Made by a program: the position numbers and the translations under genes. The notes below the pieces were generated by a model. It was given only the letters and a program-made list of their open reading frames with translations, did no database searches and was not told where the DNA came from. From assembly GCA_964373325.1 (NCBI GenBank), contig CAYJUJ010000002.1, positions 1 through 25,712 on the forward strand: a stretch of DNA of 25,712 nucleotides. The letters run 5' to 3'. This document shows, in pieces, positions 721 through 4,779 of the stretch (position 1 is its first letter; each line of letters opens with the position of its first letter). The stretch comes from an uncultured bacterium. Its GTDB lineage: Bacteria; Bdellovibrionota; JACOXK01.

Positions 721-2166
721 TTATACAATCCTGAAATGCCCTTTCAAGGTACAACGACGCTTCCTTGTAAAATCAATGGCATTAGTCATTCCCTCACCCG
801 TAGGGGATGCAATTGTAAAGGAAGTATAACCCTCTCCTCCTAAACCCAACCCTGAATAAGAGGGAGCATTTTTTACAAAAATAGAGGTATTCATAAGACA
901 TGCCATTTGATGAAGATGATCAATATTTTTAGAATGAATAACAGCTGTGTGCCTATAACCATGCTCAGCCTCTTTTGAAAGAAGCAACCCTTCTTCAAAG
1001 TTTTTCACTCGAACAACGGGCATCACTGGCATCATAAGCTCTTCTTGAACAAAAGGATGATTCTTATCAACCTCACAAATAATAAGTCTAACTTCATCAG
1101 AAGCTTGTACACCGATTTCCTTCAAAATAACATTAGCATTCTTACCAATATATTTTTTATTGGGTTTTCCGTTTTCTAAAACTTGAGCTTCCAATTGTCT
1201 TAACTGAGAAGAAGATGCTAAAAAAGAATTATTTTTCGTCATCTCTTGAATCAGTTTGTCAGCTACTTCATCAACAACAATTGTTTCTTTTTCTGAAACA
1301 CAAACAATATTGTTATCAAGACTTCCCCCCTTCACAATGTAGCGCCCTGCTTTTTCAATATCAGCCGTTTCATCAACAAGAACGGGAGGATTTCCAGGCC
1401 CTGCAGCAATTGTTTTTTTACCACTGGCCATAGCAGCCTTAACTACCCCGCCACCCCCTGTTACAACAAGGAGTCTTATGGCTTTCTGCTTCATAAGCTC
1501 TGCAGCTGATTCAATGGTTGGATCTTCAATAGCTGTAAAAAGATTTTCAGGACCACCCGCTTCTAGAATAGCTTCATTAATAATTTCAACAGTACGAGCA
1601 GAAACATCTTTGGCCATAGGATGAGGGTTAAAAACAACGGCGTTTCCCCCTGCAATCATACCAATGCCATTATTGATGATGGTTTCAGTTGGATTAGTGC
1701 AAGGAGTAATAGCACCAATAACGCCATAAGAGGCTCGCTCTTCTAAAACTAAACCATTATCACCCGTTCTGGCATAGGGAATTAAAATTTCAGTTCCTGG
1801 AGTTTGATTAATAACAAGAAGATTTTTTTTGACTTTATCGGCAACTCTTCCCATTCCTGTTTCTTCCACAGCAAGTTTTGCCAATGTCTCAACATTTTCA
1901 CGGCAACGTTTACGAATATTTTCAATAACACGCCCTCTCTGTTCTAAAGTGATTGTAGCAAAGCGATTGTAAGCAACCTCTGCTGCAGCCACTGCTTCAC
2001 TGACGGTTGTAAAAATTCCTTTTCTTTTTCTTGTCATCCCGGACTTGGATCCCGAGGATCCAGGCATTTTAGATACTGGATCCCAGCTTTCGCTGGGATG
2101 ACCCGTGTTAATACGAGAGACTACTTTATCAACAATGTTTTGAATTTGGTGTTCAGTTAATTGCAT
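721..2166 (-). CDS. CoA-acylating aldehyde dehydrogenase (EutE/PduP-like) with N-terminal encapsulation peptide
   Basis: Motifs ITPCTNPT, VVFNPHP, VTGGGGVV, AGPGNPP, catalytic Cys in NNIVCVSEKE, EELMMP, SFTIASPTGEG. N-terminal amphipathic helix LTEHQIQNIVDKVVSRI. ATG at 2166 preferred; the TTG at 2205 in the ORF track is also in frame. Confidence 0.93.
   Translation of the reverse strand: MQLTEHQIQNIVDKVVSRINTGHPSESWDPVSKMPGSSGSKSGMTRKRKGIFTTVSEAVAAAEVAYNRFATITLEQRGRVIENIRKRCRENVETLAKLAVEETGMGRVADKVKKNLLVINQTPGTEILIPYARTGDNGLVLEERASYGVIGAITPCTNPTETIINNGIGMIAGGNAVVFNPHPMAKDVSARTVEIINEAILEAGGPENLFTAIEDPTIESAAELMKQKAIRLLVVTGGGGVVKAAMASGKKTIAAGPGNPPVLVDETADIEKAGRYIVKGGSLDNNIVCVSEKETIVVDEVADKLIQEMTKNNSFLASSSQLRQLEAQVLENGKPNKKYIGKNANVILKEIGVQASDEVRLIICEVDKNHPFVQEELMMPVMPVVRVKNFEEGLLLSKEAEHGYRHTAVIHSKNIDHLHQMACLMNTSIFVKNAPSYSGLGLGGEGYTSFTIASPTGEGMTNAIDFTRKRRCTLKGHFRIV
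2033..2102. repeat. Inverted doublet of REP-like palindromic units inside the aldehyde dehydrogenase coding sequence
   Basis: Unit A (+, 2033-2063) GTCATCCCGGACTTGGATCCCGAGGATCCAG; unit B (-, 2076-2102) GTCATCCCAGCGAAAGCTGGGATCCAG with perfect stem ATCCCAGC-GAAA-GCTGGGAT. The two units face each other and share GTCATCCC...GGATCCAG ends. Confidence 0.8.
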
Positions 2167-2176
2167 ATTAAAAATA

Positions 2177-2203
2177 CTGAATCCCTGCTTTCGTAGGGAT
2201 GAC
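2177..2203 (-). repeat. Third REP-like unit, between the BMC-P stop and the aldehyde dehydrogenase ATG
   Basis: Minus strand GTCATCCCTACGAAAGCAGGGATTCAG; same length and architecture as unit B, and both are followed by TAT(C/T)T. Confidence 0.8.
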
Positions 2204-2205
2204 AA

Positions 2206-2496
2206 TTATTCTTTCAGAAAAGTTGTTTCACCACGCAGTTCAACTTCATCAACAATAGCCATAATGACCGCATCAACTGGTTTGTTTAAAGTTAATTCTG
2301 TTTGACGGGCAGAACTGCCAGAAGCAAAAAGGACAAGCTCACCCACTCCAGCACCTACAGAATCCACCGCCACAACATAACTACCCTTTGGTTTCCCAAA
2401 GTGATCAGTCTGCTGAACGATGTGTAGTTTCATTCCTGAAAGGCCATCGTCTTTGCGAGAGGCTACAACTGTGCCCTCCACACGCCCAAGCTGCAT
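2206..2496 (-). CDS. BMC pentamer (BMC-P, EutN/CcmL family)
   Basis: [15 protein letters not shown]...[23 protein letters not shown]...[13 protein letters not shown]; 96 aa. Confidence 0.96.
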
Positions 2497-4716: not shown

Positions 4717-4779
4717 AATTGACAGCCACTTTCAGCGCCAACCAAATTCAATGGTTGGCGCTGAAAGTGGCTGTCAATT
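4717..4779. repeat. Perfect 28-bp inverted repeat with 7-nt loop
   Basis: AATTGACAGCCACTTTCAGCGCCAACCA (4717-4744) / AATTCAA / TGGTTGGCGCTGAAAGTGGCTGTCAATT (4752-4779); arms checked base by base; GC-richer than the flanking DNA. Confidence 0.95.

Follow-up and report, generated by a model that had tools for sequence, protein, structure and literature searches.

The locus described here raises the question of how a pair of facing palindromes came to be read as protein inside the gene of a BMC cargo enzyme, in the very segment that joins the predicted encapsulation helix to the catalytic domain, and what consequences this had for the enzyme. In Aussignargues et al. (2015; PMC4594438), BMC aldehyde dehydrogenases (AldDH) are described as an N-terminal amphipathic helix of ~18 residues followed by a hydrophilic linker rich in small residues and then the enzyme, with poorly conserved linkers of 4-91 residues (mean 28). 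The linker studied here lies within that published length range and differs from those described there in that its DNA origin can be traced to a repeat element; in the portions of the encapsulation-peptide literature available, we found no mention of the derivation of a BMC linker from a repeat element.

Two kinds of short palindromic repeat are relevant to this question. CGTC-tagged REPs carry an unpaired terminal CGTC, often TGTC or CCTC, an 8-9 bp stem starting A-T, T-A, a 4-5 nt loop and a CCA tail; they occur mostly as inverted dimers, have no dedicated transposase, and encode 20-30 residues where the dimers are intragenic (Di Nocera et al. 2013, PMC3733652). Rickettsia RPE-4 and RPE-6 belong to these CGTC REPs (PMC3733652). 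Rickettsia palindromic elements (RPEs) in general lie in frame in many housekeeping genes whose function is kept (Ogata et al. 2000, 2002, as summarised in PMC10969869).

In this study we examine the REP dimer of an AldDH gene in a window of 25,712 nt (the whole stretch of DNA that was analysed), together with its host genome (G000), related genomes and orthologous proteins. The host genome is a MAG of 1.62 Mb with 37% GC in 246 contigs, many of which end in REPs.

Results

The AldDH gene and its BMC locus

The acylating AldDH gene occupies 721..2166 on the minus strand (ATG at 2166, stop codon included in the coordinates), encodes 481 residues and lies in an open reading frame that extends over 721-2205 of that strand. 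Residues 54-435 match Pfam Aldedh, and the NCBIfam model PRK15398 scores 662 bits. A BMC pentamer gene of the EutN/CcmL family (2206..2496, minus strand; PF03319, E = 1.3e-30) lies directly upstream, and BMC shell genes flank the AldDH gene on both sides, the BMC-H/T and pentamer genes being adjacent according to Pfam. An AlphaFold2 model of the protein (input alignment of 45 sequences, mean pLDDT 81.9) predicts a helix at residues 5-21, the putative encapsulation-peptide helix (2104..2154, minus strand), whose N-terminal sequence is conserved among orthologues, and a fold modelled with confidence from residue ~50 onwards, with pLDDT below 50 at exactly residues 22-45. The AldDH as modelled has the BMC encapsulation-peptide architecture of a terminal helix, a disordered linker and an enzyme within a BMC locus, encapsulation itself being predicted.

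Anatomy and reading frame of the dimer

The codons of residues 22-45 are a complete tag-to-tag REP dimer of two facing hairpin units at 2032..2103, on the minus strand as read by the gene, with a length of 72 nt or 24 whole codons. A first-pass annotation of the window had reported two facing palindromic units at 2033-2102 inside the open reading frame, encoding about 24 residues between encapsulation helix and catalytic domain, and both statements are confirmed: the outer inverted arms GTCATCCC/GGGATGAC (2033-2040 and 2095-2102) and the inner inverted arms GGATCCAG/CTGGATCC (2056-2063 and 2076-2083) are each 100% complementary, and the 24 codons coincide with the low-confidence segment of the model. 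Since that segment is predicted to be disordered and lies between helix and fold, the repeat-derived peptide is, on the model, the tether that joins the encapsulation helix to the catalytic domain. Its translation from the minus strand, in the frame of the ORF 721-2205, is GHPSESWDPVSKMPGSSGSKSGMT, a 24-residue peptide rich in Gly, Ser and Pro, after which comes RKRKGIFTTVSEAV. Across the dimer only one frame of the three on each strand is open, and the AldDH gene uses that frame.

Unit A (2032..2063, plus strand) has a TGTC tag, a bulged hairpin and a CCA(G) tail, and is a sub-variant whose 29-nt core GGATCCTCGGGATCCAAGTCCGGGATGAC occurs exactly three times in the genome (in the window and on contigs C13 and C90), with a one-mismatch copy on C16. 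Unit B (2076..2103, minus strand) has a GGTC tag, an 8-bp stem ATCCCAGC, a 4-nt loop and a CCA(G) tail; it is one base away from the commonest variant of the genome (5 copies) and identical to a copy in the relative G006. The A/T-rich spacer between the two CCA tails (2064..2075) resembles the conserved spacer of the other dimers of the family (...ATCCAGTATTTAAAAGG.ATGGATCC...). The nearest paralogue of the whole dimer, G000:C90:5434-5501, is identical at 61 of 70 positions and has the same architecture and the same two unit types, and its differences in the right-hand stem are compensatory. As regards the marks of a MITE, terminal inverted repeats and a target-site duplication, the ends of the dimer are inverted (GTCATCCC/GGGATGAC), and at the flanks of the window copy there is no direct repeat (...TTCTT / element / CGTGT...).

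The first-pass annotation had also expected an added hairpin in the mRNA, and the predicted fold agrees: the RNA of 2020-2115 folds at -34.7 kcal/mol (z = -4.0), with none of 200 shuffled sequences as stable. An Rfam scan of 1800-2400 returned a single match at chance level (RsaJ, 16 bits against a 100-bit cut-off), and thus no described RNA family. A third unit, unit C (2177..2204, minus strand, TGTC tag), is a single REP unit that fills the intergenic spacer between the EutN and AldDH genes; its extended 37-nt repeat copy at 2167-2203, 81% identical over the 37 nt, abuts the ATG at 2166, and the spacer measures 39 nt in the window against 24 nt in the contig of the nearest orthologue, P0002. 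Together with unit B, unit C makes up a direct repeat pair of 101 nt, the start codon and the codons of the helix lying between the two.

The repeat family in the host genome and its relatives

The arm GGGATGAC occurs 3 times in the window, where 0.33 are expected, and 136 times in the genome, where composition predicts 22. The full unit pattern GGATCCC-stem-loop-stem-GGGATGAC has 49 exact matches in the genome and the reversed-pattern control has none, while a looser, hairpin-aware search of G000 returned 105 units, a few of them false, so that the family numbers ~100 copies. G000 also has about 20 dimers whose tags point outwards; they measure 53-97 nt and have a conserved A/T-rich centre, single units being 25-36 nt long. 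The proposal that a mobile element had landed in the gene could have failed here if few or no further copies had existed, and the ~100 units and ~20 dimers are far from that outcome.

Among 99 units the tag is TGTC in 82, CGTC in 7, AGTC in 5 and GGTC in 5, the base 5' of GTC having been left free by the search pattern. Stems of 8 bp are present in 79 units and stems of 9 bp in 4, the leading AT being imposed by the pattern and so not independently tested. Loops of 4 nt occur in 33 units and loops of 5 nt in 15, and a second class measures 12-16 nt; such expanded loops are found in ~40% of units, and some hold an internal hairpin. The tail is CCA in 87 of the 99 and its third base, the only tail position that the pattern left free, is A in 95. 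Stems vary from unit to unit by compensatory changes and the flanks are fixed. Beyond the single hairpin, many units (C14:12489, C105:896, C167:3634, C135:4696, C230:1800 and C226:2688) run into further recurrent modules, first another small hairpin (for example ACGGTAGTGT or GGCTGGTAGCC) and then CACTTTTGGAA, and for this reason we describe the repeats of the family as mosaics of several modules, like BIMEs.

The same family is found in relatives of the same class and in a few other families (46 matches in G001, 90 in G016, 21 in G003 and 15 in G014), and the searched genomes from most other families of the phylum gave no family matches, the reversed control again being 0.

Copies read in frame in other genes

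Units of the family lie within long open frames in 26 of 105 cases, against 74% of random positions, so the family is depleted in coding sequence yet far from excluded from it. Once the weak-anchor false positives among the 105 (C104, C210, C9 and C21:4553) are left out of the gene counts, Pfam places at least 10 units inside or between the domains of real proteins in G000. The proteins concerned are Der/EngA, RNase J, HolB, Mfd, CarB and FtsK (in its linker), together with an AddB-like nuclease, hydantoinase A, hydantoinase B and a cyclase/AAA protein, encoded on contigs C216, C87, C40, C75, C7, C76, C35, C156 and C71 (loci L025-L042). The copy in the window is therefore no isolated case, since G000 has at least 10 such in-frame insertions, this one among them. 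When Der, RNase J and HolB are aligned with their orthologues from five relatives, the residues encoded by the units stand out as insertions of 3-8 residues.

Certain unit-encoded peptides recur (WIPxxxGMT, xDPxLRxDD, VIPxxxGIQ and xHPxxxxxS/P). For a single unit five of the six frames are open in ~80-90% of copies, and the sixth always contains a TGA, within GGATGAC; because five frames are mostly open, units are readily read through. Each unit that is read in the sense orientation brings an ATG in frame.

Linkers of orthologous enzymes

The nearest orthologue, P0002 (from an ENA metagenome), is 88% identical to the AldDH of the window; the two proteins agree in all of the first 17 residues, which take in most of the helix, and at the KRKGIF junction, and P0002 has a linker (KVD..STW..KKRK) unrelated to the window's. 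Conservation of the peptide among orthologues would have spoken against a recent arrival of the element, and the closest of them lacks the peptide. The linker type of P0002 is recognisably common to P0003-5, which are 72% identical to the AldDH, and a maximum likelihood tree of the catalytic domain places (P0001, P0002) as sister to (P0006, (P0003-5)).

In most orthologues, the nearest relative included, the linker has no REP, and the exceptions are found in two further lineages, which are other genera. The orthologue of G001 (L006, G001:C19) has a single GGGATGAC-family unit that is read in the same frame and encodes PRSQIKSGMT, and P0006, whose N-terminal sequence matches this orthologue, likewise has one family unit in the same GMT frame and keeps the C-terminal half of the old linker. 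In the orthologue of G003 (P0019; L007, G003:C18:9650-9669) the linker unit belongs to a second family, ATCCTGA.CGAAG.GAAGGA, and encodes SHPERSEGS; this second family has 27 copies in G003 and 0 with the control. In the relative G016 this second family (ATCCTGAGCGAAGCGAAGGA) is not confined to dispersed single copies: up to five copies follow one another head to tail, at a period of ~31-33 nt (C21, C56, C117 and C9).

The REP-type units in the AldDH linker thus differ in family, number and orientation among three lineages. Mapped on the catalytic-domain tree, the trait of a REP in the linker requires three changes, all forced by well-supported branches, so that repeats entered the AldDH tether at least three times independently. 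We rejected a single ancestral insertion shared with G001, because P0002 and P0003-5 have REP-free linkers that are homologous to each other and because of the three changes on the tree.

The first-pass annotation had held that the element changed the length of the tether to the shell, a claim that fails in the comparison. Measured from V15 to G50, the distance is 34 residues in the AldDH of the window, 28 in P0002, 34 in P0003-5 and 32 in P0006, and over 45 homologues the median is 31, the extremes being 19 and 74. Because P0002 has the same helix with an unrelated linker that is common to the sister clade, and because the V15-to-G50 distance is within the family range, the REP dimer replaced the ancestral linker rather than lengthening it, with a loss of ~18 ancestral residues and an essentially unchanged tether length, the empty state being reconstructed from protein comparison. 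Pure insertion fails to explain these data, since the ~18 ancestral residues must also have been lost; together with an empty site known from proteins, this loss is what weakens an account by simple insertion most.

What moves the family

REPIN/RAYT systems consist of GTAG REPs mobilised by REP-associated tyrosine transposases. The present family resembles them in that its repeated entity is an inverted dimer of hairpin units and in that RAYT-like Y1 transposase genes are present in G000; it differs in its tag, which is T/CGTC and not GTAG, and in that no RAYT-like gene is flanked by its units. A search for RAYT or IS200-type transposases had been proposed in the first-pass annotation, and it found the genes but not the association: G000 has four Y1 transposase genes (PF01797, RAYT-like) and four relatives have nine, and no family unit lies immediately beside (within about 1.4 kb of) any of these 13 Y1 loci in the five genomes. 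G001, with its 46 family units, has no PF01797 match. For the two G000 genes that were scanned (on C11 and C96) the NCBIfam RAYT model beats IS200, NF047646 scoring 66-72 bits, below its 80-bit cut-off. Both are flanked by long inverted repeats of their own, an arrangement that corresponds to the 'TIRYT' type of PMC3733652 and not to REPIN/RAYT. As no RAYT-like gene is directly flanked by family units and other inverted repeats stand there instead, we dropped the REPIN/RAYT model for this family.

With no transposase linked to it, we infer the mobility of the T/CGTC family from its copy number, patchy distribution and lineage-specific sites. The earlier proposal of a mobile palindromic element serving as a spacer accordingly stands in its description of the element, which is multi-copy, in frame and forms the linker, and only by such indirect evidence in its mobility.

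The Y1 gene on C11 is flanked by 31-nt perfect inverted repeats (L001, arms 1301-1331 and 2077-2107), and a perfect 28-bp palindrome with a 7-nt loop at 4717-4779 of the window has the same sequence as these repeats and is therefore a gene-less dimer of the ends of the C11 cassette, a 'TIR' repeat in the sense of PMC3733652. The core of this palindrome occurs 9 times in the genome. The gene on G000:C96 (L002, 1132-1246 and 1910-1939) has on its flanks a separate repeat family of its own, AAGGTTGTCC...AAAGACAGTCTT, whose core AAGACAGTCTT occurs 17 times.

Discussion

Relation to known repeat systems

In anatomy, as judged from sequence, the G000 family matches the CGTC-tagged REP superfamily (CGTC-1/-2, PMC3733652), the comparison being one of described features. 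The two are alike in the T/CGTC tag, the 8-bp AT-stem, the 4/5-nt loop, the CCA tail, the frequent inverted dimers, the intragenic copies and the want of a dedicated flanking transposase (13 Y1 loci, 5 genomes). They are unlike in the long loop class described above and in their hosts, most described families being alpha-proteobacterial and the present one belonging to an uncultured groundwater lineage labelled 'Deltaproteobacteria/Myxococcota'. The likeness to RPEs, as these are summarised in PMC10969869, lies in palindromes that are in frame in many unrelated genes as extra surface or linker peptides, and the family shows the RPE-type combination of in-frame insertion in many unrelated genes with absence from orthologues. 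Classical RPE-1, in contrast, is ~150 bp, against units of 25-36 nt and dimers of 68-97 nt here, and the host is not an obligate intracellular alpha-proteobacterium. The event in the window clearly adds one more case to a phenomenon already known, that of intragenic CGTC REP dimers and RPE-like coding palindromes, and it reveals no new mechanism.

Probable entry of a repeat dimer into the tether

We consider it highly probable that a CGTC/TGTC-tagged REP dimer entered the DNA for the disordered AldDH tether after the split from the 88%-identical relative. According to this explanation a short palindromic repeat, selfish or in any case proliferating, entered between the codons of the encapsulation helix and those of the catalytic domain. 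The element lies in the only frame that the dimer leaves open and is, in predicted translation, read through as a 24-residue peptide that now is the linker. The ancestral linker was lost, total tether length remaining within the normal range of the family. The insertion presumably persists because the segment is almost free of sequence constraint, and its effect on the protein is probably neutral, the one added property being a strong predicted mRNA/ssDNA structure ~60-130 nt into the gene.

Such a reading presupposes that the dimer is truly inside the gene, and the assembly gives some reason for caution. Two contigs ending in the repeated 27-nt left unit might have been misjoined: the MAG consists of 246 contigs, many with REP ends, and Logan contigs from all runs break within 2032-2064, none bridging this 27-nt unit and their loose ends leading to other copies. 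The join at the dimer rests on k-mer overlap and on the restored gene. Nevertheless, Logan contigs from two studies reproduce the same two junctions (X1 1817-2060 and 2034-2900; X2 1748-2061 and 2032-2480), the joined sequence gives back a complete gene in frame, with a helix and a KRK-G-F motif that match P0002, the gene order EutN, AldDH, BMC-domain shell gene is the same in the P0002 contig, and the G001 orthologue likewise lies directly downstream of a pentamer gene. Were the join wrong, each half of the gene would nonetheless adjoin the element. We therefore regard an assembly artefact as extremely unlikely. Among contigs matched at 80% likeness there was no variant without the element, a comparison in which contigs cannot show absence.

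Granted that the join is correct, the dimer could have uncoupled the helix from the enzyme, active AldDH starting at the ATG in the GGGATGACA end of the element (Met44) and being made with no targeting. It would suit this idea that all sense-orientation units bring an in-frame ATG, and that sequence inspection found no clear Shine-Dalgarno before the annotated ATG at 2166, the spacer there being filled by a REP unit; the internal ATG, however, likewise has no Shine-Dalgarno on inspection, the open frame runs without a break from the conserved helix across the element, and the helix has not decayed, its first 17 residues being the same as in the 88% relative, so that we judge such an uncoupling very unlikely. 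A use for the structure itself deserves somewhat more credit, though it too seems unlikely to us: the hairpin pair and the unit before the ATG may be kept for operon regulation, possible roles being mRNA stabilisation or processing between the shell and cargo cistrons, or a translational pause after the helix emerges. The predicted structure is strong, units lie on either side of the start codon and the helix-coding region, REPs have known roles as RNA elements (PMC3733652), and REP units occur in the AldDH linker of three lineages. These three occurrences differ in family, number and orientation, however, which fits tolerance better than conserved function; REP-free linkers are the rule in the nearest relative and most orthologues, the same units sit in at least 10 unrelated genes, and no U-run follows the hairpins, so they are not terminator-like. 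A regulatory reading of the mRNA hairpin is possible but unsupported.

Implications

Linking the two ideas, one may ask whether BMC cargo linkers are recurrent landing pads for REPs in which a hairpin after the helix codons has been put to use. Among roughly a dozen orthologues there are three independent entries, which involve two repeat families, and we hold this combined proposal to be quite improbable. If it were true, the hairpin may pause the ribosome such that the emerged helix engages shell or cargo condensates co-translationally, or alternatively it may set the ratio of shell to cargo expression within the operon.

Returning to the entry of a dimer into a tolerant tether, the case identifies a selfish hairpin repeat as the DNA from which a BMC cargo linker arose, and provides a natural experiment in which the linker sequence was swapped wholesale and its length kept, which argues that length and flexibility matter for the AldDH tether and sequence does not. 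Such a swap is useful to engineers of encapsulation tags. The findings also extend the CGTC-type REPs and their intragenic habit to an uncultured groundwater lineage with small genomes, and the three independent entries in one linker show that permissive sites strongly filter where such repeats survive.
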